Positions 3,884-63,984 of a DNA stretch of 64,000 nt are shown in pieces; position 1 is the stretch's first letter, and each line of letters opens with the position of its first letter. The notes under the pieces were generated by a model, which had not been told where the DNA came from, searched no databases, and was given only the letters and a program-made list of their open reading frames with translations. The position numbers were made by a program, and so were the translations under genes. Source of the stretch: a virus; IMG/VR virus record IMGVR_UViG_3300031652_000001; one strand, given 5' to 3'.

Positions 3884-4354
3884 TCACTCCATCCTTTGGC
3901 AAAGGAACGGATGGTTAAAACCACTCCTCCACAAAATCATCCCAAGCCCACCTTTTTTACACACATTATCAAAAGCCGGTATTAAACCCCTCTGAACAGC
4001 AACCGGCCGACAAAAAGAAAAAACACTATCAACCTGACCAATTATCTGGTCAATAGCATCACTCCTCAGAGACCACGGCTTCCCCTTGAATGACACTTTT
4101 CCAAATTTTATAACATCTATTAAGAATACTTTTTTACCCTTTATCGAACCAATAATACTGGCTCTAACCTGAGAAACGATCTTTCTGTTCGGAACATCAA
4201 TCTCGACACCACTCAGAGTCTCCCATGATGTACCAGTTTCCGTCATAGATATGACACATAACTGGTTTCCCTCTATCAAATATCCAACACTGTTGGCACG
4301 CTCAAACGATGGAAGGTTCCTTCGCGATATTGTCCTGAAATAATATTTTGGCAT
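3884..4354 (-). CDS. Hypothetical protein resembling a degenerate ATP-dependent ligase adenylation domain
   Basis: Motif order LIEGNQ / FLIDVIKFG / PWSLRS / GGLGMIL resembles ligase motifs I, IIIa and IV without the catalytic Lys. Confidence 0.4.
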   Translation of the reverse strand: MPKYYFRTISRRNLPSFERANSVGYLIEGNQLCVISMTETGTSWETLSGVEIDVPNRKIVSQVRASIIGSIKGKKVFLIDVIKFGKVSFKGKPWSLRSDAIDQIIGQVDSVFSFCRPVAVQRGLIPAFDNVCKKGGLGMILWRSGFNHPFLCQRME

Positions 4355-4359
4355 TATAA

Positions 4360-4431
4360 TTCTCCAAAAAAATAAAGATTCCGCCCCCTAACCGCCTCGG
4401 TCGAGGCGGCCAGGAGACGATTTTTGGAGAA
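4360..4431 (-). promoter_or_regulatory. Structured 5' UTR sequestering the SD of ORF 3884-4354
   Basis: 11-bp perfect inverted repeat 4360-4370/4421-4431 that includes the GGAG SD; inner GC hairpin at 4392-4409. Confidence 0.5.
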
Positions 4432-4455
4432 ATGGGGGGGTGTCCTGTTGAAAAC

Positions 4456-4484
4456 ATAATGCAATATTCTGGATAAGAATGCAA
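4456..4484 (-). promoter_or_regulatory. Sigma70-like promoter TTGCAT-N17-CATTAT
   Basis: Intergenic, correct spacing, AT-rich upstream sequence. Confidence 0.4.
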
Positions 4485-4513
4485 CAAATTTCACCCCTAA
4501 TTCAAAAAAAATT

Positions 4514-5263
4514 TCAGATTTCCACGTTTTTCTCCTGGTCATCATCCTCACCATCCTCATCATCCGTGTCCTCTACTACATCAGAGTAAGAATTCATCAC
4601 TATTGTCATAATCCTACAAGCATCATCCGCCGTCAACTCAGTCGTTGCACCACCTATCTGTTTTGACAGCGAAGCAAATTCCATATACGCAACAGCCATC
4701 GCAATAATGATCCCCTCCTCCGATGAGGACTCACCAATACAAAGTTGTAATCCAAATGTTGTGCCAACACTGGCAATGAATCCACCAGAACACTTCTCAA
4801 CTGCCTTCAGGTGAATAAAGAGACGATGATTATCATCTGTAGACCGACTAATATCCATGAAATCATTCGAAACGAAAAAACACCGGTGAACCCTGTCGTT
4901 CTGAACATATCCCCGCCACAATACCCTCCTGGTGGTCCCAACCGTTGTCTTCTCCTCTACCTTCCAGAAGAATGGTCGAACACCCCATCGACCACGCTCA
5001 ACGAGGTCGACAACAGCTTCTGCCATGCTTACCCTAACCCTTCCATTGCTGACATAATCGACAACAGCCTGTATTTCACCAAGCCGTGATCTCATATCGC
5101 CTTCATCCTGTGCACCACGTATATATGTTTCAGCGGCGACGTTTATCTTATCCAAAACAACCTGTCGCCTTGTCATCCTTAAACGCCGCTTCTGAATTTC
5201 CTCATCCCGGAACTTCTTTTTTGCCTCCGAGATAATCCCCTCAATAATTGATCCGTTTGACAT
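4514..5263 (-). CDS. Hypothetical protein with acidic C-terminal tail
   Basis: 249-aa ORF directly downstream of a promoter. Confidence 0.6.
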   Translation of the reverse strand: MSNGSIIEGIISEAKKKFRDEEIQKRRLRMTRRQVVLDKINVAAETYIRGAQDEGDMRSRLGEIQAVVDYVSNGRVRVSMAEAVVDLVERGRWGVRPFFWKVEEKTTVGTTRRVLWRGYVQNDRVHRCFFVSNDFMDISRSTDDNHRLFIHLKAVEKCSGGFIASVGTTFGLQLCIGESSSEEGIIIAMAVAYMEFASLSKQIGGATTELTADDACRIMTIVMNSYSDVVEDTDDEDGEDDDQEKNVEI

Positions 5264-5325
5264 TTTTCCATCCCTCTAAACCAGTGTGAAAACAATTTCA
5301 GTTTTACCAGGTAAACATTCTCCAT

Positions 5326-5383
5326 CTTCAGGCAACTTGCCTGGCATCTATATATATTGTACTTATCCAGTATATAAAGTCAA
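5326..5383 (-). promoter_or_regulatory. Promoter TTGACT-N16-TACAAT plus leader hairpin (copy 1 of 3)
   Basis: AGATGC-CAGGC-AAGTT-GCCTG-AAG just downstream of the -10 box. Confidence 0.7.
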
Positions 5384-5599
5384 TAAACCCGGGGCTTCTT
5401 TCCGGATCTCTTTCTCTTTTAAAATTTCGATTTTTTAGATCTTCTAATTTTAGAAAATTTTTAAAAATTTTTAACTCACACTTGGTAGAAAAAACGGAAG
5501 TTTTTTTCGGTTTTTCTGATAGAGGGGGACGTCGAAGCGCGAAGCGCGAGACAACCCTGATTCTGCTCAGCTGCATATACTTAACTCTAGATCTACTTT

Positions 5600-5690
5600 G
5601 GGTGACATTTATGTCGCCCTTAACCCGACATTTTTGTCACCCTTAACCCGACATTTTTGTCGGGGTCTAACCCGACATTTTTGCCGGGGT
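5600..5690. repeat. Four tandem palindromic boxes GACA-N4-TG(T/C)C at 23-24 bp spacing; putative iteron array/origin
   Basis: GACA at 5604, 5627, 5650, 5674 with CCC/GGG flanks; AT-rich tract near 5415-5475. Confidence 0.65.
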
Positions 5691-6403
5691 TAGCGATACC
5701 CACCTCCAGCCGGTATTTTATCGAAAAAAGTTTCCTCAATTATTTCATAACACCTTGTTTCAACAGCGTTTATATCCATGCATCCATCAACGATGACATT
5801 GTTCTCAGGCCATGGGTTATAAGAACCCCACCCTTTGTACAGCTTGCAGACCTCTGTTTGCATCAAAGTATTTTCATAAATCTCCGGAGAATCAGTTTTT
5901 GAAATACGCCTACTCTCAACTTCATCCACTGAAACATCAAGGATGATAGTTAGGTCTGGAAACAACAACCCCTCCGACCTGTCCATCCATACCCGCATAT
6001 CCCTAAGATAGGACATTTTATCCGGAAGAGTTTTTTCACCGAACTTCATAGGGTCATTTAAAAAATCCTTTGCTCCCTGATAAATCAATGTTGAAGCATA
6101 ATACCGATCACAAATAACCCATTTACCAGTAGAAAGAGGCCACTCTATTTCGCTGATGACATGATCTTTCCTGTCAGCACGAAACAAAAGCTTCATAGCC
6201 TCATTACAAGGGGGTGGAACCTCACTCTTTAACACCGAGCGAATGAATGTCCCAATAGGTCCAGTGCTCGGTTCACATGTCCAAATAACATTTCCTTCCC
6301 CAAGTTTTTTGGACAATTTATCGAAAAGAAGCTTCGATTGTGTTGTCGTTCCTGCACCATCAGCACCATCAAAAACGATGAACCTTCCTCGTTCAGTCAT
6401 CAC
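5690..6403 (-). CDS. tmk: Thymidylate (dTMP) kinase
   Basis: FIVFDGADGAGTTTQ P-loop, CEP, LLFRADR, ICDRYYASTLIYQG, PDLTIILDV. Confidence 0.92.
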   Translation of the reverse strand: MMTERGRFIVFDGADGAGTTTQSKLLFDKLSKKLGEGNVIWTCEPSTGPIGTFIRSVLKSEVPPPCNEAMKLLFRADRKDHVISEIEWPLSTGKWVICDRYYASTLIYQGAKDFLNDPMKFGEKTLPDKMSYLRDMRVWMDRSEGLLFPDLTIILDVSVDEVESRRISKTDSPEIYENTLMQTEVCKLYKGWGSYNPWPENNVIVDGCMDINAVETRCYEIIEETFFDKIPAGGGYR

Positions 6404-6812
6404 AACGACCTTTCAGATATTTGTATTTTTTACCATCAGTGTAAACAGAGCCCCATAGGTACCCCCACCAAAAGAACAAAGCATCTCCGATACCGGCCAC
6501 AACCGGAAAGAGAAAAAGCCAATGCCAATGACTAACCAGTAATAGAATTGCGTTCACAACCAACCATGTGGTTGCACAAATTAAACCAGCAAACATCGGT
6601 GCTATGTGAACCCCAGAAAAACTTAACTCACCATTAGTATCATATCTACAGTAGGCAAAATACCACCTGCCGTCCACATTGCACGGATACGGCTTGAATG
6701 CCAGTGGCTTCCATCCTCGCTTCACATAGGCAACCAACAAATGACTACCTTCATGCACAGAGTTCTGAATGAGCCATGTTGCAACAGCAACCAAAAATGA
6801 AATCATGACCAT
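6393..6812 (-). CDS. Membrane zinc metalloprotease-like protein (M50/zincin type)
   Basis: HEGSH (HExxH) next to a TM helix; further TM helices with IAP and GD motifs. Confidence 0.6.
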   Translation of the reverse strand: MVMISFLVAVATWLIQNSVHEGSHLLVAYVKRGWKPLAFKPYPCNVDGRWYFAYCRYDTNGELSFSGVHIAPMFAGLICATTWLVVNAILLLVSHWHWLFLFPVVAGIGDALFFWWGYLWGSVYTDGKKYKYLKGRCDD

Positions 6813-7339
6813 CTCGAATATCTCCTTTTTTCAAGATAGGATAATCCCTCAATTCCTCTATGGGAAACCCACTGATTTACAGCTTGATTGCTCCCCCAAG
6901 AATCATCCGGAAGTTCACGATTCAAATATGAGACAATGTGTTTAAATTTGAAAATATTTTCACTATCAGCATAAATCACAGATAGCGATAGGTCATTTCT
7001 GAGCACAGCTTCAGTGAATCCAGATAGAAGTTTTCCATATCGAAGATACTCTTGAAACATCGGAACCAAAATATCGATGACATCGTTTTTGATGGCCTTA
7101 ACATATCTGGTTACCCAACCAGATCCACAACACCAGTCACAAGAACTTGGACTGTCACAACCACATGAAACAACCATCGATTTACGAGGCCCAATGACAA
7201 AGTATGAACCAGGAATACCTTCTTCCTCCACCCTGCTTTTCCAAAGAAGAGAAGCAAGCTGCATCACACGACTATAACTGTGTTCCTCACAAAGAACACT
7301 TACAGCCCTGACAAGAATATCGTCTTTGGAATCAACCAT
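6803..7339 (-). CDS. Two-domain hypothetical protein (Cys-rich domain plus AVLRNDL...WGS domain)
   Basis: CGC..CDWCCGSG followed by GFTEAVLRNDL...AD.EN...P..SWGS. Confidence 0.55.
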   Translation of the reverse strand: MVDSKDDILVRAVSVLCEEHSYSRVMQLASLLWKSRVEEEGIPGSYFVIGPRKSMVVSCGCDSPSSCDWCCGSGWVTRYVKAIKNDVIDILVPMFQEYLRYGKLLSGFTEAVLRNDLSLSVIYADSENIFKFKHIVSYLNRELPDDSWGSNQAVNQWVSHRGIEGLSYLEKRRYSRWS

Positions 7340-7340
7340 C

Positions 7341-7817
7341 TCAAGCCTCTATCTGTGTTCCATAAACAGGAACAACATCTCCATCGAGACGAATATTGAA
7401 ACCGTACAATGTGAGCATCTTATAGACAAAATCTGCACACAGATCCAAAGCCCCAATATGACGCATAATCTCACCACAGAAGGCAAGGTCTCCTTCACCA
7501 ATATTTCCATCGTGGGATGTCATATCCAAAACCAAGACAACCCACACATCAGCATTAAAAAACTCGCCAATAAAACAATGTTTTCCGACGATATCGACAC
7601 GACCTTTTTCCCGCAAAAATACCTCAGCCGTTCCTTTGAAATCCATACCAACACGTTGACCAATAATCTGATCCCTGCGGATTTCGTTACAGGTCAACGT
7701 AGAATGAATCACAACAAGATTTTTCATGGACACCTGAGAAAGTATGCCAGGTCGGATTTCTTCGGGAAAAATCATATCACCTCGGTATTGTCTAAATGTA
7801 CTCCAAGGAGAGCACAT
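7341..7817 (-). CDS. Hypothetical protein
   Basis: ORF in operon; start uncertain. Confidence 0.45.
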   Translation of the reverse strand: MCSPWSTFRQYRGDMIFPEEIRPGILSQVSMKNLVVIHSTLTCNEIRRDQIIGQRVGMDFKGTAEVFLREKGRVDIVGKHCFIGEFFNADVWVVLVLDMTSHDGNIGEGDLAFCGEIMRHIGALDLCADFVYKMLTLYGFNIRLDGDVVPVYGTQIEA

Positions 7818-7861
7818 ATTTTCTCTCCTCTAGGACGGTCTCCATAATGACTTCTTTATAA

Positions 7862-8278
7862 CTACCGGTCCTCTACAGCTTTACCGGCAACAATTTTCAC
7901 ACGAGTTATATAAAACACGGCCTCGTCATTGTCATCATGATACCTCCATTTGATAGGATCATCATGTCCATTTTTACTCAGCTTCATACCTTTGAATACC
8001 TCCGGAAGTTCACTTTTTTTCATCCTCGTTGCCCCAGGAATAGTCATGATCCAACGATCATGACTACGCCAGAAATTACCATCTTCATTTTCAATGATGA
8101 AAAGCTCATTAGCTATGCTTTCCTCAAGTGTTCTCACATCATCGAGTAAGGAATCAATATGCTTCCATTTCCTGGACAACTCCTTTTCGAGCCTTCTCCT
8201 TGTAATCTCCATCTCAAACACTTCAGCTTTGTTTTTATCAAGGACAATCTTCAATTGTTTCAGCTCATGATGACTCAT
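7862..8278 (-). CDS. Hypothetical protein with N-terminal coiled coil (start MSHHEL)
   Basis: GGAG SD; overlaps the upstream stop region. Confidence 0.5.
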   Translation of the reverse strand: MSHHELKQLKIVLDKNKAEVFEMEITRRRLEKELSRKWKHIDSLLDDVRTLEESIANELFIIENEDGNFWRSHDRWIMTIPGATRMKKSELPEVFKGMKLSKNGHDDPIKWRYHDDNDEAVFYITRVKIVAGKAVEDR

Positions 8279-8555
8279 CTTTTTTTCTCCCAGAAGTGTG
8301 AACCACCATCTCTTCTTCGGAATCAGATATGGCAAGACACAGAATGTCGACAAATAATGATTGAACATCACCAATCGGCTCGTTTACGGCATAATTGTCA
8401 ACTGATTCGGACCAAGCATTAGGAAGGACATCTCTCAAAAAATCGATAATATCTTGACGACCAAAACCAGATGCCTCGACCAATTTATGAATTTGGGCAA
8501 TTTTCTTTGCCCCCTTCTCATAAGCAATTCTTGCTTTATCAAGTTTTTCGTTCAT
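8265..8555 (-). CDS. Hypothetical protein
   Basis: 96-aa ORF with GGAG SD. Confidence 0.5.
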   Translation of the reverse strand: MNEKLDKARIAYEKGAKKIAQIHKLVEASGFGRQDIIDFLRDVLPNAWSESVDNYAVNEPIGDVQSLFVDILCLAISDSEEEMVVHTSGRKKDESS

Positions 8556-8558
8556 TGA

Positions 8559-9104
8559 TTATTTCTCCACTTTTTTATCAATCACAAATTGACCCTTTGG
8601 ACCTTCAGCTAGCAACCCGTGATAGTGGGTTAGCAACAAATCCCAAACAGCACGTTTTTGAGCTATCGGGATCATATTAGCCTTCTTATATTCACCCGGA
8701 ATCGCCTCCCATCTTCTACCAGGTATATTACGCCATGCCCTATTGGTCTCAGGGCTGTATGGAGTACGAACCACAAGACGTCCATCCATCTCCGTGATAA
8801 AAACCTCGGGTTTTAGCTTGCAGCGCTTCTCAATCCTATCAGCGAGCCTCACAAAACCAAGCTCCCTGAGCCTCATCAACGGTTCAAAGATTTCTACGCC
8901 TTTCTGAATAACGGCTATCTGATAGACAAGCTTGTTTGCTTCCTGACGTAATCCCTCAGGAACGTCAACAGAGCCCAGAAGCCTGGCACGACAATCAGGC
9001 CCCACCCCTGTCTCGACAGAAACAGCGTCCACCAGGGGGCGCCCACAGGCCGCACAGCGTGTTGCTACCATCTTCGCCTGAGGAGAATTCTCATATCCGG
9101 ACAT
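8559..9104 (-). CDS. DUF6011-like Zn-binding protein with C-terminal HARP-like module
   Basis: CAACGRPLVD.VS..TGVGPDC; C-terminal TPYSP...IPGRRW...IP motif. Confidence 0.6.
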   Translation of the reverse strand: MSGYENSPQAKMVATRCAACGRPLVDAVSVETGVGPDCRARLLGSVDVPEGLRQEANKLVYQIAVIQKGVEIFEPLMRLRELGFVRLADRIEKRCKLKPEVFITEMDGRLVVRTPYSPETNRAWRNIPGRRWEAIPGEYKKANMIPIAQKRAVWDLLLTHYHGLLAEGPKGQFVIDKKVEK

Positions 9105-9547
9105 TACCGACCACCTTTCTTCATAGTGGAGACGTAGTCAGCAAGGGAATTCAAGAACATCTCGTGTTCTTTCTCCGGAACATCCGCCAAGAGGGAATCG
9201 ACCATTTTTTTGAATTTCTCGACCTGCTTGCTACCAACAGCAAGAACGATACTGTTGAAACCAGTGTTCTCGGTCATGAAATACTCGGGATAGCTTCCAC
9301 CAAAAGCCTTCTTGACCCTCTGAAAACACGTCGGACAAACAGCAAACCAACCAAGGCTGTCATCATTAACCTCAGCCTCAACCTCATCGGTGACGTGAGA
9401 GCCGTATTCAACAATATGGATACGGTGTAATGGAATAGTGGCTTTGCCGCAAAGATGGCACGGTTCTTGACCATCAAGACATCCCTGATTTTCGTTACGG
9501 GTAATGACTTTTTGTGACTTCATCAGTGTTGAGATTTCAATCCGCAT
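9104..9547 (-). CDS. Zn-finger hypothetical protein
   Basis: CHLCGK...LGWFAVCPTC; first gene after a promoter. Confidence 0.55.
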   Translation of the reverse strand: MRIEISTLMKSQKVITRNENQGCLDGQEPCHLCGKATIPLHRIHIVEYGSHVTDEVEAEVNDDSLGWFAVCPTCFQRVKKAFGGSYPEYFMTENTGFNSIVLAVGSKQVEKFKKMVDSLLADVPEKEHEMFLNSLADYVSTMKKGGR

Positions 9548-9557
9548 TTTTCATCTC

Positions 9558-9645
9558 CTTCGGACATCTCGTCCGGCATCTACGAACAAACTTACTCATT
9601 CTAAATGCGAAGTCAAGTTCATGTTTTCATGTTTTGGTGTTTTTT
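9558..9645 (-). promoter_or_regulatory. Promoter TTGACT-N16-TAAGTT plus leader hairpin (copy 2 of 3)
   Basis: AGATGC-CGGAC-GAGAT-GTCCG-AAG; upstream AAAAACACCAAAACATGAA block shared with copy 3. Confidence 0.7.
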
Positions 9646-9672
9646 AGAGAAAAGATAAAAGCCCCACCACAC

Positions 9673-10134
9673 TTACGTTTTTCTTTTCTTTGCCCATCTC
9701 GAAGGTAAGGCCCCACCATCGGACAACCAATCACTGAGGGATAAAATCAGATCGGCGAATTCCACCTCAACACTGGTGTTTACCTCATCACGTCTATTGA
9801 GAACCATATCGGCCAGATTCAACATCCTGCCAAGTTTTTGATTCGGGTTGATCTCCTCCCTCTCTATCGTCGGCTTTCCGACTTTCTTTACAGGAACAGG
9901 TTTTGAATCTGTTGCCTTGGCAACCGGTCTGGGTTCTGGAATAGATTTTGCTATGTTTATAGGCCAAGCATCCTCATTCCCGCATCGACCACCGGCTTTG
10001 CAGAAATCACATTTTTTATTCGGAAGAGAAGGATCTATCGAAGATAGATCACACTTCCCAACCGAAAACAACCGACATTTCATGACGCCATCAATTTTGA
10101 CACAAGCTGTCGTTATGTGTTTTTTCTTTGCCAT
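9673..10134 (-). CDS. Hypothetical protein (Cys-rich N-terminus, DWLSDGGALPSRW C-terminus)
   Basis: 153-aa ORF, AGGAG SD. Confidence 0.55.
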   Translation of the reverse strand: MAKKKHITTACVKIDGVMKCRLFSVGKCDLSSIDPSLPNKKCDFCKAGGRCGNEDAWPINIAKSIPEPRPVAKATDSKPVPVKKVGKPTIEREEINPNQKLGRMLNLADMVLNRRDEVNTSVEVEFADLILSLSDWLSDGGALPSRWAKKRKT

Positions 10135-10164
10135 TTTTTACTCCTGACGATTTTTTCTGAAACG

Positions 10165-10494
10165 TTACCTCTTTTTCTTCTTTGACAGGGATTCGAGATG
10201 CGCTTGGGCGATCCTGCCTGCTTCTTCATCACTTTCTGCATCAAAATATTCCTGAGGCATCGTCATGAATTCTTCTTTGGTGAGCGCTCTTTTTTCAGGA
10301 AGCAACTCAACCTTGTCAACCTTGTACCGAGCAATAAAACGATTGCAATCCGGATTGTAACAACGGACTTCCATCGTTGTTTCATCCATCATGATCATTC
10401 TCAAAGGAGCTGTCGGGTGACATCTTCCATGAATATGAGCCGGAAAATCTCCGCACAACTCACAACCTACTGTTTTAGCTTTATTTTTTGCCAT
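10165..10494 (-). CDS. Zn-binding hypothetical protein
   Basis: CELC, HGRCH, CYNPDC. Confidence 0.55.
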   Translation of the reverse strand: MAKNKAKTVGCELCGDFPAHIHGRCHPTAPLRMIMMDETTMEVRCYNPDCNRFIARYKVDKVELLPEKRALTKEEFMTMPQEYFDAESDEEAGRIAQAHLESLSKKKKR

Positions 10495-10506
10495 TTTTTT
10501 ACTCCA

Positions 10507-10821
10507 TTACTTGTTTTCTTGAAAACTATCTCGAAGCTCACGCATCCTCTTTCGGACACAACTCCGCTGACACCTGTCCGCTGCACAAGTTGGCGCCGTT
10601 TCGAACGGAAGGCTATCGCAAAGCTGATCTGCAACATACCTAACCTCATCATTGTTCGTCTTGTATGAAATCCAACAACCAGCAATATACTGGTCGAACA
10701 CACATCTTACAGCTGTTTTTGATTCAGACCGACGACCGTATTTATCAACAAAATGAACAGCTTCACTTTTGTCTGAAAAAAGAAAATCAACAAAATTCTG
10801 AATTTTTTGTTCCATGAACAT
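10507..10821 (-). CDS. Hypothetical protein
   Basis: First ORF after promoter copy 3. Confidence 0.45.
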   Translation of the reverse strand: MFMEQKIQNFVDFLFSDKSEAVHFVDKYGRRSESKTAVRCVFDQYIAGCWISYKTNNDEVRYVADQLCDSLPFETAPTCAADRCQRSCVRKRMRELRDSFQENK

Positions 10822-10829
10822 ACCTTTTT

Positions 10830-10908
10830 CTTCGGGCTTCTAGCCCGGCATCTGAATAAAAAGGTATCATCTTCGTAGGTGAAGTCAAGTTCATGTTTTG
10901 GTGTTTTT
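10830..10908 (-). promoter_or_regulatory. Promoter TTGACT-N16-TACCTT plus leader hairpin (copy 3 of 3)
   Basis: AGATGC-CGGGC-TAGAA-GCCCG-AAG; lies at the late/early boundary. Confidence 0.7.
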
Positions 10909-10934
10909 GATTTTTTAGGTAAAAACAGGAAAGA

Positions 10935-11969
10935 TCAATCCATCGCAAGCCAGGAATGAGAATCGATACCTGCCTTTGACATTGCTGCCAAAAGTTCCCG
11001 ATAGGACATCTTCTCGATAACCTTTCGGTTCTGAATAACCCATGCCCTAAACTTTTTCACTGCCGTCTTCCAGCCCCTCTGTGGTGGTATTGTTCTGGGC
11101 TCGTTCATTTTGTCGCGCTTGTCCGCTATCAAAAAATCCTTGTACCCGGCTTCAATCCGAACCTGAGGAGTATCAATCACGATCTCCTGGTCACCAGGAG
11201 GAGCGACATCTACACCCCTCAGCTCCCGTTCTTGAATCTTTGGACCAACCCCCTGTGGATTCTTCTTAAACTGATCCACAACGCCCCTGGCCATCGCCAG
11301 GGCCTGCTTATAGGTCTTGGCTCGATGTATCTGACTCGCAAATTGACTAATCAACCTCAAAGTATTTGGATCCTTAATATAATCGAGATCATACAAAGCA
11401 AATTCATTGACATTTTTGCCGCGCTTCCCTGCATTTGTCATGTCAGTAATATGAAAAGAACTTGCAAATCGGTGAACTCTAATGACCGACGTCTCAAGAG
11501 TTTTCCCTATTGGCATCTCTTCTGCAAGAACTTTACTTTCAGCCAAATAATCCCTCTGTCTCAATGACACGCTTTCACGGTATGGTTTAGAACCTGCTTT
11601 ACCAGTAATACTCGGAAGCTTTCCCGTTGAAAGGTAAGTATCGATGGCCTTTACCACAAATTTCATCGGCGAAAAATCAGGTGTAAACGACCGCATCAAA
11701 ACAGCCTTATACAGCTTCAGATCATTCGGATCCTCACTGTTCATCTTGACACCCATCTTCTTCTCAGCATCCTGAGCAGCACCAAGAAGGAGTCCAAGTG
11801 CATTTGGATTATAATATCGTTTCTTTTTGGACCGAATGTCGTACTGGATAATTTTGCTCCCAAGTACCATATCAAATAACTTCGGCGTCGCCTTCTTACC
11901 ACTTGGTAAAGTCACTTCTGAAAGAACCCCAGTAGAAAACCCACCAACATAGCTCCTGTTCCTCAACAT
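10935..11969 (-). CDS. Predicted internal head protein / polyprotein
   Basis: N-terminal MLRNRSY...VLSE and internal SLRQRDYLAES leaders; basic; AGGAG SD before ATG at 11969. Confidence 0.6.
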   Translation of the reverse strand: MLRNRSYVGGFSTGVLSEVTLPSGKKATPKLFDMVLGSKIIQYDIRSKKKRYYNPNALGLLLGAAQDAEKKMGVKMNSEDPNDLKLYKAVLMRSFTPDFSPMKFVVKAIDTYLSTGKLPSITGKAGSKPYRESVSLRQRDYLAESKVLAEEMPIGKTLETSVIRVHRFASSFHITDMTNAGKRGKNVNEFALYDLDYIKDPNTLRLISQFASQIHRAKTYKQALAMARGVVDQFKKNPQGVGPKIQERELRGVDVAPPGDQEIVIDTPQVRIEAGYKDFLIADKRDKMNEPRTIPPQRGWKTAVKKFRAWVIQNRKVIEKMSYRELLAAMSKAGIDSHSWLAMD

Positions 11970-13353: not shown

Positions 13354-13899
13354 CTATGAAACCGACCTTGCAAAACTCTTTGCGGCCTCTTTTGACTGTT
13401 CCACTGTTTTTATTTTTCTACCCCGGAACTTGTTATCAACCAAATCGGCAGAATCAGGAACTACTTTCCCGACAGGAAAACAACAGTAGGCTCTATGACT
13501 CCAACCACAATATCCCCGCTCTCTATTTGAATATCCTATTGACTTAAATTTGTGAGTAGATTTGGCTTTCAATGGCTTTTCTATTCCAAGCTTGCGATAA
13601 AATTTTTGCCATCTACTTTCTTCTTTCTGCCGTCTTTTTCTGCCCCTACCTTCGCTTAAAACCTCAGCAGACATAAAAAGACCAATGATGGACTCCATCA
13701 TCCCCATGGACCGCAATATGTTATCAGCTGTAACAAATGTCGCTATGGAAGACAGCTTTCTCTCCTGATTACCAACACGGAGAAACCACATCTTCCCTTC
13801 CTTTGACAACGTCGCAATACCGAACTTGGTCTCCTTTCGATATCGAGGCGGTTCCTTCGATGGCCAACTCCTAGATGTTTTCTCCCACTCAGTATTCAT
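13354..13899 (-). CDS. Predicted two-domain internal protein (C-terminal IGYS...GWSHRA domain)
   Basis: Internal MESIIGLF...VLSE linker between two basic domains. Confidence 0.5.
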   Translation of the reverse strand: MNTEWEKTSRSWPSKEPPRYRKETKFGIATLSKEGKMWFLRVGNQERKLSSIATFVTADNILRSMGMMESIIGLFMSAEVLSEGRGRKRRQKEESRWQKFYRKLGIEKPLKAKSTHKFKSIGYSNRERGYCGWSHRAYCCFPVGKVVPDSADLVDNKFRGRKIKTVEQSKEAAKSFARSVS

Positions 13900-61197: not shown

Positions 61198-63984
61198 CTA
61201 CGCAGCTTTCATAGTATGTAAAATCTCTCGCAACAAGTTTGCATTCTCACGAAGTTGTCGTCCAATAAGACTGTTCGGATTTTCAATCTCCCTTCGAACC
61301 ATTCCTTCTATCCGTTTTTCATCCTCACGATTACCAGAAAAAAGCTCTCTCTCTGTTATCATGCCAGAACGACCAAAACGATTTCGAATAATCCTACCAC
61401 CAGAAACAGATTCAAAACCCCTGTTGTCTTCTTGCCCTTGCTGATCAACACCAGCCGCCCTCTCTGCTTTCTTTTGTTTGACAATATCTTCGATTTCATC
61501 ATCCGACATTTTGTAAATATGCTTCATCAGCCAATACATACTCACATGACGTTCCATCATCGACGCAAGATCAGCCCTTGCTCGTCTGGCTTCCATCTGA
61601 CCAAGCTCAAAAATTGAACTTGGAACAGTCATTTTTATGTCAAAATCAACAGCAGCTGGATCAATTCTTCTGGCCGCAAGATTCACTTTTGCAACCTTCT
61701 TCATTCCATTTCTGATCTCTCTCTGAACTCTTAGAATGGTCCTTGCAAAACGAACATCCTCTTGGGATAACGTTGCCCGACTCGGCATATTCTCATCGTA
61801 TCCCATATAGGCACGTGGGATCTTCAGGGCAGCATATAGCTTGTAAAGAAAATACTGCACGTCATCCACCTGTTGGTACGCTGGCCCCATCAGAGATTCT
61901 ACCCTAGTCGTCTCTCTTCCTTCTCTAGTTGCGAAAAAGAAATCCTGATCCATCGACATCGGATTTGCACGAAGGTCGAGTTTGCCAGTATTGTGCGTAA
62001 ATACCCCAGCCGTGAGTAAGAAATTATGATATTTATCAACATCCAAGTTGTAGACGTCCTCATACCCATCAACAGTTACGCTCACAACCTTATGGTTGTT
62101 CATCGCCCTGGTCGGCTCATCTCCATAAGTTCTATTCCGCCACCTGGCCTGCCCCGTCTTCTCACACTTATAAGCCTTGAATCCGCTGTACCCCTTTTTC
62201 TTCAAAAACGCCCTCAGCGTCCCCGCTGACACCTTTACCTTTGCCGTGGTTGGACACTGGCAATAAACAGCAGAAAACAACTCGTCAACATTAAGCCTAT
62301 CAGCCAGCTCTTCCGATGTAACCAATGGATCTCTAACGACATGCTCTTCAATAATGTCAAGCATCATCGCGTGCAAAGGGAGCGCCTTCTCCATACGAGC
62401 CTTCATCGACGCTTGCCCCGCCTTTACCGCCGCCCCATGAACGTCCGCACCAGATCTCATCCTCCATTCTGAAAGTCTACGAGCAATGCTCTCTCGGAAA
62501 TCACTATCCGACGTCAACCTCTTTACAAAAGCACACCTTCCATTGATTGCATTCTCAGGATGACGCTTCATATGCTCTGATGCAGTAAGGATCTCAAGGT
62601 TTTCTGGCCGATTATCTCTCTTATCACCATTTTTATGATGAACATGACATCCATCGATTTGGCCAATGCCAGCCCCTTCGGCCACCTCCCTATGGACATA
62701 CCTTCTCTCTCCGGTCATAGGATCACGGTACGTGTCATAACCCTGCGTCCCATCCGTGCCCTTTGACACATACAATGGCATCAAAGAATCTCCATGCCTA
62801 AGCTCAGACGCTGCCTTGTATGTCCCATCACGCATCAAAAACGGATGGATATAGTTGCATCTAACTACAGCCCCACTATCCAAAACAACTCTATAAATCT
62901 TCTGCTTCTTGTCCGTCAGTCGTGGATTACTCGCAAGTCCAGGAACAACCCGACCAGACGCCAAATCGTAAGAATAGACCCAGAACTTTTCATCTTTAAA
63001 GTCCCTGGCCAACTCTGACATGCTCCTGTCCGTACCATCTAACAACTTTACACAAGTCTCCCCTGTTAAACATTTGGGATTCACAAATTTCCTTTTTTTC
63101 AATTGCTGCATGGATTCGCGCAAAATTTTCTGTGCTTCATACTTCGGTACTTTCCCGACATCGATATAAAACGCATATCTACTTGGACTTCGAGTCAACT
63201 TGTAAACAAGAACAGCATCCTCTAACAACATAAGCCTTTTCCAGACCCATCTCGCTGGATCAATGACAGACCACCCATAAAGAGATTCACGATACTTTGC
63301 CGTCAATCTCATATGGACTACTCTCCAATCCTCAAAGGCTGCAACATCTTTAGTGTCATTCGTTCCTGAACCACCACTGATTCTGAACTTTTCAAATTGC
63401 TCTGGAGTAAAATCCAAATTATCTGAAAATGTTTGCATAAAACCAAAAAGATCGCCCTTTTTGTTTTCTATCCGGCGCATTGTCTTTGCAGGTAAAAAAC
63501 TCAAACCAACAACACCACCATCACCAACAATAATCTCCTCGTAATCATTACCCATCTTGCAAAGACCACGAGATATTGGCCAAATATTATTGTCGATATC
63601 TATTCGCTTGTAATACATATCCATCAATTCTTCTTTGATGGAATCATCATTACATTCAACCCATAGAACTTTCCCGTCAGAACTATCCTCCTGAGTAGAA
63701 TCGTCAGCATAAATATCCAGCGCACTAGAAATATCAGAATATTCATCCATTGATTCATAATCATAGAACCTTTGGAGCATGCCTCTATCGAGAGAAAGCA
63801 TGCCATGGAGATCCCCACTCTGAAGAATATCCATAGAAGCTCCAAGACCTGAAATACTGGCATTGGCAGCCAACTCCTTGGTCGATATTGCCAAATCCTG
63901 ACCCTGCTTATCGCGCCTGAAAACATCCCTTATAAAGGAGATGCCCTTTGAATCAATCTTGCCCATACACTGCCCCTGACTCAA
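61198..63984 (-). CDS. Portal protein (T4 gp20-like), intein-containing
   Basis: LMLLEDAVLVYKLTRSP.R..FYIDVG; MSMDQDFF; YFLYKLYAALKIP; FARTI.R.Q. Confidence 0.95.
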   Translation of the reverse strand: MSQGQCMGKIDSKGISFIRDVFRRDKQGQDLAISTKELAANASISGLGASMDILQSGDLHGMLSLDRGMLQRFYDYESMDEYSDISSALDIYADDSTQEDSSDGKVLWVECNDDSIKEELMDMYYKRIDIDNNIWPISRGLCKMGNDYEEIIVGDGGVVGLSFLPAKTMRRIENKKGDLFGFMQTFSDNLDFTPEQFEKFRISGGSGTNDTKDVAAFEDWRVVHMRLTAKYRESLYGWSVIDPARWVWKRLMLLEDAVLVYKLTRSPSRYAFYIDVGKVPKYEAQKILRESMQQLKKRKFVNPKCLTGETCVKLLDGTDRSMSELARDFKDEKFWVYSYDLASGRVVPGLASNPRLTDKKQKIYRVVLDSGAVVRCNYIHPFLMRDGTYKAASELRHGDSLMPLYVSKGTDGTQGYDTYRDPMTGERRYVHREVAEGAGIGQIDGCHVHHKNGDKRDNRPENLEILTASEHMKRHPENAINGRCAFVKRLTSDSDFRESIARRLSEWRMRSGADVHGAAVKAGQASMKARMEKALPLHAMMLDIIEEHVVRDPLVTSEELADRLNVDELFSAVYCQCPTTAKVKVSAGTLRAFLKKKGYSGFKAYKCEKTGQARWRNRTYGDEPTRAMNNHKVVSVTVDGYEDVYNLDVDKYHNFLLTAGVFTHNTGKLDLRANPMSMDQDFFFATREGRETTRVESLMGPAYQQVDDVQYFLYKLYAALKIPRAYMGYDENMPSRATLSQEDVRFARTILRVQREIRNGMKKVAKVNLAARRIDPAAVDFDIKMTVPSSIFELGQMEARRARADLASMMERHVSMYWLMKHIYKMSDDEIEDIVKQKKAERAAGVDQQGQEDNRGFESVSGGRIIRNRFGRSGMITERELFSGNREDEKRIEGMVRREIENPNSLIGRQLRENANLLREILHTMKAA
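61990..63072 (-). mobile_element. 361-aa intein with HNH homing endonuclease
   Basis: Starts CLTGET, block B NYIHPF, HNH VHHKNGDKRDNRPENL..L...EH, ends VYNLDV..HNF...THN before +1 Thr. Confidence 0.93.

Follow-up and report, generated by a model that had tools for sequence, protein, structure and literature searches.

The viral DNA considered here, a stretch of 64,000 nucleotides (nt) from IMG/VR virus record IMGVR_UViG_3300031652_000001 that we refer to in its entirety as the window, carries three cassettes in which a promoter-like sequence is followed almost directly by a short hairpin. The question raised by this locus is what such a hairpin does at the head of a message. The reading that we favour, with a probability of about one half, is that each cassette combines an early promoter of host type with a 5′-terminal leader hairpin, most likely a stabiliser of the messenger RNA (mRNA), and that the whole is an analogue of the PeSL (promoter-early stem-loop) elements of T4-type phages. 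An earlier note on this DNA had described the three copies on the minus strand (at 5326-5383, 9558-9616 and 10830-10888) as TTGACT, a 16-nt spacer, TAnnnT, 6-7 nt, AGATGC, a 5-bp stem, a 5-nt loop and AAG. All three are present with this layout, and are referred to below as c1, c2 and c3:

5383-5326, minus strand: whole of c1 (covariance-model score 66.8 bits)
5383-5378 and 5361-5356, minus strand: c1 -35 box TTGACT and -10 box TACAAT
5349-5344, 5343-5329 and 5328-5326, minus strand: c1 leader, comprising AGATGC, the stem-loop CAGGC/AAGTT/GCCTG and AAG
9645-9558, minus strand: whole of c2, including an A/C-rich upstream block (covariance-model score 68.7 bits)
9616-9611 and 9594-9589, minus strand: c2 -35 box TTGACT and -10 box TAAGTT
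9581-9576, 9575-9561 and 9560-9558, minus strand: c2 leader, comprising AGATGC, the stem-loop CGGAC/GAGAT/GTCCG and AAG
10915-10830, minus strand: whole of c3, with its A/C-rich block at 10915-10889 (covariance-model score 74.5 bits)
10888-10883 and 10866-10861, minus strand: c3 -35 box TTGACT and TGn-extended -10 box TACCTT
10853-10848, 10847-10833 and 10832-10830, minus strand: c3 leader, comprising AGATGC, the stem-loop CGGGC/TAGAA/GCCCG and AAG, with the predicted +1 near 10853

The c2 and c3 cassettes match each other at 74-78% across ∼97 nt and have the A/C-rich upstream block in common, as the earlier note had also observed; where these two have an A-rich block, c1 has an AT-rich stretch (5417-5474). 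A purine-rich, Shine-Dalgarno-like tract follows the hairpin in every copy. In c2 the AAG at 9560-9558 forms the first letters of the Shine-Dalgarno sequence AAGGAG, so that the hairpin abuts it. Each of the three stems could gain a sixth pair (A-U, G·U and U-A, respectively), which would reduce the loop to 3 nt (AGU or AGA). When folded in isolation, the 24-mers adopt the expected structure with energies of -7.6 to -10.1 kcal/mol and z-scores of -2.6 to -3.4.

The recurrence of the cassette in the window exceeds chance. The pattern TTGACN-N15-18-TAnnnT is found at these three sites only on both strands of the window. A definition based on the hairpin, with no promoter demanded, returns exactly the same three sites against 0.14 expected from Markov shuffles (maximum of 2 in 200), and a generic promoter with a GC-rich hairpin 11-13 nt past the -10 box was observed three times against 0.18 expected (200 Markov shuffles, maximum of 2). 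The bare string AGATGC-N15-AAG is not significant in the window (3 found, 0.72 expected; 3 were reached in 5 of 100 shuffles). The AGAUG words in the leaders were considered as a signal and set aside, AGATG being common, with 188 copies on the coding strand. As a control, the promoter-plus-loop pattern was matched 21 times in bacterial and archaeal genomes, all apparently by chance; just two of these matches were fully paired, and both lie on contigs unrelated to the phage.

Further copies came from relatives. A search with the protein of a neighbouring 416-aa gene returned three metagenome contigs whose versions are 93-99% identical. A pattern scan of metagenomes gave one further true relative (L006) and nine other matches that were due to chance, with no obvious hairpin by eye. 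All four relatives have the same cassettes in the same places as the window. Across three sets of orthologous cassettes there are 12 variable columns in the promoter spacer, -10 box and discriminator, while the 24 columns from AGATGC to AAG contain a single change, from G-C to G·U. A fourth copy, c4, lies upstream of a Sipho_Gp157-like gene on a 162-kb relative contig (L017:16456-16519) and reads TTGCAA-16-TATACT-7-AGGCC-CTGGC-GAGAT-GCCAG-AAG.

Diverged copies were then sought upstream of homologues of the Gp157-like gene, without use of the motif. Where the Gp157-like protein is 70% identical (L018:722-784), the c4 stem is kept with the loop GGAA and the flank AUG. At 38% identity (L019:743-805) the copy reads TTGACT-16-TAGAAT-11-CCUGC-GAGAU-GUGGG-AAG and includes two wobble pairs, and the same contig has a second copy ahead of a helicase gene (L019:2173-2234; CUGGC-GAGA-GCUGG-AUG). 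At 48% identity (L054/L055) a different hairpin stands straight after the promoter, with 8 bp and a bulge in L054, and at 45% identity (L056) there is a new hairpin, UGUCAA-GAAA-UUGACA, nearer the promoter. The L056 site (498-561) also retains a remnant, GAGATGCCAGAAG, which corresponds to the loop, 3′ arm and AAG of c4 with the 5′ arm lost, as would be expected if the 5′ hairpin had been turned over. Elsewhere among the relatives, a promoter look-alike (L015:12590-12664; TTGACC-18-TAACAC, with TG before the -10 box) lies upstream of a block of HTH_36, DnaC-like, DnaB and primase genes.

Beyond these contigs the element was not encountered. Searching the window and the ∼70 kb read from relatives with covariance model R1 added no copy, and neither pattern-based nor protein-based scans of IMG/VR viral contigs gave a relative with the element. 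Against four distantly related cultured phages (Streptococcus phage GXN1, Bacillus phages SP-15 and HSE3 and Listeria phage LIS04), R1 scored at most 19 bits, and the top two hits were without a matching hairpin. Rfam gave nothing at gathering thresholds in the window and nothing relevant at E≤1 in 4300-11100. On these searches, the element appears so far to be confined to a small uncultured clade and its family appears to be new.

The pairing of the stem is maintained throughout. In an alignment of 12 sequences (A2), the 5-bp helix is paired in 60 of 60 cells. When each of the eight distinct hairpins is taken once, 40 of 40 cells are paired on the sense strand, five of them as G·U, whereas the antisense strand would pair in 35 of 40. 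Three of the five pairs show changes on both sides, and pair 2 occurs as GC, AU, UA, CG and UG. The compensatory stem changes that the earlier note had read from three copies are thus borne out with the further copies included, every distinct hairpin being fully paired. Shifting the partner by 1-3 columns in A2 reduced pairing to 18-38%, and RNAalifold applied to the promoter and leader returned the same helix and no other. This pattern fits selection on the sense-strand RNA. The covariation support is good and not overwhelming, because there are few independent copies.

The hairpin keeps its distance from the promoter rather than from the coding sequence. The -10 box and the stem are 11-13 nt apart in every copy, while the distance from stem to start codon is 63 nt in c1, 13 in c2, 11 or 17 in c3, 36 in c4 and 23, 27 and 41 in relatives. 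The hairpin therefore appears to be tied to the transcription start and not to the ribosome-binding site. The usual spacing between a -10 box and +1 is 7-8 nt. From the position of the -10 box, the message is predicted to begin at about the A of AGAUGC, in agreement with the start suggested in the earlier note, and the hairpin would occupy approximately +6 to +21. The same note had treated AGAUGC as a conserved part of the element, which does not hold: AGGCC, GUUC or CUGC stands there in the fourth copy and the relatives. Nor is AAG universal, with AUG in L018 and in the second L019 copy. Of the flanks, just the C preceding the stem and the A following it are invariant. Two other uses of the leader were considered and rejected. 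A leaderless or upstream mini-ORF (open reading frame) from the ATG of AGATGC would encode unrelated peptides, with a stop after three codons in c3, and the GAGAU loop has a downstream AUCUC with which it could form a pseudoknot in c2 only.

How might such a cassette work? We propose that the promoter is read by the main sigma factor of the host through its A-rich upstream block, TTGACT, 16-nt spacer and weak TAnnnT -10 box. The transcript would begin ∼5-6 nt ahead of the GC-rich hairpin of 5-6 bp, making this the 5′-terminal structure of what we infer to be early messages. There it would slow 5′-end-dependent decay of early phage mRNAs, by hindering both the removal of pyrophosphate by RppH and the entry of RNase E or RNase J1, and the purine-rich, Shine-Dalgarno-like tract behind it may add ribosome-mediated protection. 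The whole ∼100-bp cassette would then be the counterpart of a PeSL in a distant lineage. There is precedent for the stabilising step: hairpins at or near the 5′ end lengthen mRNA life in Escherichia coli and Bacillus subtilis and impede RppH (PMC3997798), and the T4 gene 32 mRNA is stabilised by a 5′ hairpin according to work cited in PMC8948821. GNRA-type loops (GAGA, GGAA and GAAA) are frequent among the hairpins, and this, with the unrelated hairpins at the L054/L056 site, suggests that a stable structure may count for more than a given sequence. A stabiliser is favoured because the hairpin is fixed at the predicted 5′ end, stands behind promoters of host type and can be exchanged for unrelated hairpins; of the three functions offered in the earlier note, it fits best. 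If this is correct, the cassette would be a compact, portable module by which a gene is expressed first and its message kept. The cassettes probably mark the start of the early programme in an otherwise unannotatable phage.

Several observations weigh against a stabilising role. RppH needs just 2-3 unpaired nt, and B. subtilis RppH prefers a G at position 2 (PMC3997798); with +1 at the A of AGAUGC, 5-6 unpaired nt would precede the stem here (4-6 for a start 7-8 nt past the -10 box), and the AG start would supply that G. Because the predicted unpaired nucleotides suffice for RppH, protection would be incomplete unless the start lies closer to the stem. Sequence-specific recognition is hinted at by the reappearance of both the GAGAU loop and the AAG flank in c2, c4 and the 38% identical relative, along with the invariant C and A. 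The homologous site in L057/L058 (49% identical) has no hairpin. The promoter look-alike before the replication genes of L015 also lacks a 5′ hairpin, and the element is thus not on every host-type promoter of the phage. Comparisons of the capsid and RecA-like proteins name no host, on which the relevant RNases would depend.

The window is densely packed with genes, every one on the minus strand, and has a strong GC skew. It encodes virion proteins of T4 type (a portal with an HNH insert, a prohead protease, a gp23-like major capsid protein, a tail sheath and a baseplate protein) and represents a novel myovirus with T4-type head and tail genes. A comparison with 50,697 phage records gave no close relative at the DNA level, and the major capsid protein shares no more than 32% identity with that of any phage in the collection, those of Streptococcus, Bacillus and Listeria myoviruses included. 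The cassettes sit downstream of the structural module among small genes that are nearly all ORFans, the exceptions being a thymidylate kinase, a DUF6011 protein, an HNH-like gene and, further upstream, a Tad6-like anti-Thoeris domain. The features of the three units to which the text refers are as follows:

10507-10821, minus strand: first gene of the c3 unit, an ORFan of ∼102-104 aa whose likely start is the ATG at 10815, 7 nt past AAGG
9104-9547, minus strand: first gene of the c2 unit, a 147-aa ORFan with CxxC...CxxC motifs
4514-5263, minus strand: sole gene of the c1 unit, a 249-aa ORFan
4420-4381, minus strand: strong hairpin and T-run resembling an intrinsic terminator, closing the c1 unit

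The c3 unit consists of three small genes, with a 109-aa ORFan and an HNH endonuclease-like gene (9673-10134) after the first, and the c2 unit of eight genes, with the thymidylate kinase last; neither has an evident terminator behind it. In the c1 product, residues 24-34 form an arginine-rich stretch, QKRRLRMTRRQ, and the C-terminal tail, DDTDDEDGEDDDQE, is acidic. The protein gave no sequence match in Pfam, PHROG or the PDB, and a protein atlas gave no usable match. The 160-nt intergenic stretch that holds the c1 terminator (4355-4513) is 94% identical to that of a relative, compared with 79% for the flanking protein, and some ten genes without a recognisable promoter lie past the terminator. 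The same stretch contains a TTGCAT direct repeat and a C7 run, and a gene caller places a 63-aa ORF there in the relative; the stretch may act as an attenuator or give rise to a small RNA.

From c3 to c2 (9616-10830), a comparison with L002, L003, L004 and L006 shows a hypervariable interval, the rest of the sequence in these relatives being 93-99% identical. Its second gene is absent in L003, replaced in L006 and preceded by an extra 142-aa gene in L004, where the HNH-like gene also encodes 228 aa rather than the 153 aa of the window. The breakpoints of these insertions and deletions fall past the first gene of the interval and not at the cassettes. On the other side of the c2 unit, just past the thymidylate kinase gene, four tandem direct repeats of ∼23 nt (5604-5696) each contain the short palindrome GACAnnnnnTGTC. 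They are followed, directly upstream of the c1 promoter, by a GC-rich duplicated GCGCTTCG and then by the AT-rich stretch at 5417-5474, which is palindromic. This arrangement is conserved in a relative (L015:6860-7250) and resembles either an operator array or an origin with iterons and an AT-rich part. Two features lie further away. In the portal gene (61198-63984, 928 aa), the portal-homologous parts are separated by an HNH endonuclease domain (about residues 407-567), which could be intein-like or an inserted homing element. Upstream of the cassettes, the gene at 13354-13899 encodes a 181-aa protein with a C-terminal Tad6 domain (type I Thoeris inhibitor; Pfam PF25188, E=6e-14) and is an anti-defence gene in the ORFan region.

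Other explanations of the hairpin have to be set against this background. It is possible, if doubtful, that the hairpin is the RNA site of a phage regulator, either a lambda-N-like antiterminator that would be loaded onto RNA polymerase close to the promoter, or a regulator of translation or decay that would later silence the early genes; the element would then define an early regulon. Copies that otherwise differ share the (G)AGA(U) loop, the invariant C ahead of the stem and the A-N-G behind it, and the c2 hairpin touches the Shine-Dalgarno sequence. The order of the c1 unit (promoter, hairpin, one gene, strong terminator, promoter-less genes) resembles lambda pL-nutL-N-tL1, the arginine-rich stretch of the c1 product is conserved in the relative, and the stretch bearing the terminator is better conserved than the neighbouring protein. 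A lambdoid nut site comprises boxA and boxB and is bound by N together with NusA, NusB, NusE and NusG. However, boxA (CGCUCUUA-like) is absent from the leaders of c1-c3 and c4, and the loops (AAGUU, GAGAU, UAGAA, GGAA and GAGA) mostly end in U and vary in length, unlike the GNRNA pentaloop of boxB, which ends in A. Both loop and 3′ flank are altered in L018 (GGAA, AUG) and in the second L019 copy (GAGA, AUG), and the boxA/boxB-like antitermination site proposed in the earlier note is therefore not upheld. The homologous site carries unrelated hairpins in L054 and L056, the genes of the early region show no match to a known antiterminator or RNA-binding regulator, no functionally characterised relative of the c1 protein could be detected, and terminators are not evident downstream of c2 and c3. 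A more specific version, in which the hairpin is a minimal nut-like loading site bound by the c1 product on all cassette transcripts to give an antitermination switch, is distinctly improbable in our estimation. It would let RNA polymerase read through the terminator at 4420-4381 and other stops and so turn on the promoter-less downstream genes, an N-type switch from immediate-early to delayed-early expression in a T4-like virulent phage.

A role mainly at the level of DNA or of the operon, with the cassettes attenuating incoming transcription and serving as recombination sites that shuffle ORFans, seems to us unlikely. It has the precedent of the PeSLs (PMC2839356, PMC4122927), and it would suit the long match between c2 and c3, the ORFans around the cassettes and the insertions, deletions and one replacement seen in the c3-c2 interval. 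Yet with no U-run behind any hairpin these do not look like intrinsic terminators, the stems have none of the polyG/polyC tracts typical of PeSLs, and the indel breakpoints lie away from the cassettes; recombination of DNA alone also leaves the strand-specific, G·U-compatible pairing and the covariation unexplained. The same pairing bears on a double-stranded DNA operator, at which a dimeric repressor over +6 to +21 would block the promoter. The palindrome CnGnC-N5-GnCnG, with its invariant C, G and C, lies at a fixed distance from the -10 box where a repressor would typically bind, but a protein-bound DNA palindrome is disfavoured because positions that the protein does not recognise would drift independently, and here the variable positions remain complementary. 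In addition, five G·T cells break the DNA palindrome and still pair in the sense-strand RNA, and a loop of 4 or 5 nt shifts the spacing of the half-sites. We regard an operator as very improbable. That the copies are recent duplicates of one promoter, with the hairpin an incidental palindrome, is scarcely credible and is already disfavoured: c2 and c3 are clearly paralogous and there are just four paralogues per genome, but spacers, discriminators and the variable stem positions have diverged with the pairing whole in every copy, pairing persists where the neighbouring protein is only 38% identical, and the orthologues show the leader and hairpin to be constrained relative to the promoter spacer.

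We return to the proposed stabilising leader hairpin to compare it with known systems. Among 5′ stabilisers (E. coli ompA and papA and B. subtilis aprE, reviewed in PMC3997798, and T4 gene 32, as cited in PMC8948821), a small stable hairpin stands close to the 5′ terminus of the primary transcript, as is predicted here. Behind it comes a purine-rich or ribosome-binding sequence, and its position is set by the RNA start and not by the start codon. The classical stabilisers tolerate fewer unpaired 5′ nucleotides than the 5-6 predicted here, and the hairpins described for T4 have CUUCGG where the loops here are (G)AGA(U) or GNRA-like. In the gene 43 operator of T4 and RB69, a hairpin and ribosome-binding site are bound by the DNA polymerase (reviewed in PMC3014915); the c2 and c3 hairpins similarly stand just before the ribosome-binding site and the loop is partly conserved, but the distance to the start codon ranges from 11 to 63 nt, and the hairpin is repeated before unrelated genes and tied to the promoter. 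The likeness to nut consists of a promoter-proximal 5-bp stem with a purine-rich pentaloop and, in the c1 unit, of a small gene with an arginine-rich product followed by a terminator. The hairpin at a predicted +6 contrasts with nut sites, which lie tens to hundreds of nt past the start; in further contrast to nut, the loop is not conserved in relatives and no N homologue was detected in the early region.

The closest comparison is with the PeSLs. These are repeated elements of ∼100 bp in which a strong, sigma-70-like early promoter with AT-rich DNA upstream is joined to a stable stem-loop, and they occur in the ORFan-rich hyperplastic regions of T4-type phages (phi1/RB49, PST/T4 and nt-1/KVP40; Arbiol et al. 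2010, PMC2839356; Comeau et al. 2014, PMC4122927). They have been proposed to stop upstream transcription and to mediate modular shuffling, and in one subclass the stem-loop lies downstream of the -10 box (PMC2839356, PMC4122927). The earlier note had not recognised the element as a described one; this stands in so far as there is no Rfam match, and has to be qualified in that the PeSLs precede it as composite cassettes. The cassettes here are likewise repeated composites of ∼100 bp in a T4-type myovirus, with a promoter that is sigma-70-like by consensus match only, A/T-rich DNA upstream of it and, next to it, a stable stem-loop that admits G-T pairs. They too occupy an ORFan-rich variable region, and each is closed by the following gene's Shine-Dalgarno sequence and start codon. 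PeSL stem-loops, however, mostly lie between or over the promoter boxes, whereas the stem-loop here is always 11-13 nt past the -10 box and would be transcribed. There are no polyG/polyC tracts and no U-run, which makes a terminator role unlikely; the upkeep of pairing fits a sense-strand RNA; and, unlike PeSL shuffling, indels among the relatives do not break at the cassettes. With no sequence homology to PeSLs and a very distant phage lineage, we file the cassettes as an analogue or variant of PeSLs and not as members. On this comparison, the idea of a composite of promoter and stem-loop would reach from the T4 relatives among coliphages and vibriophages to a very distant lineage, in which the stem-loop has clearly been kept as RNA at the predicted 5′ end of the message.

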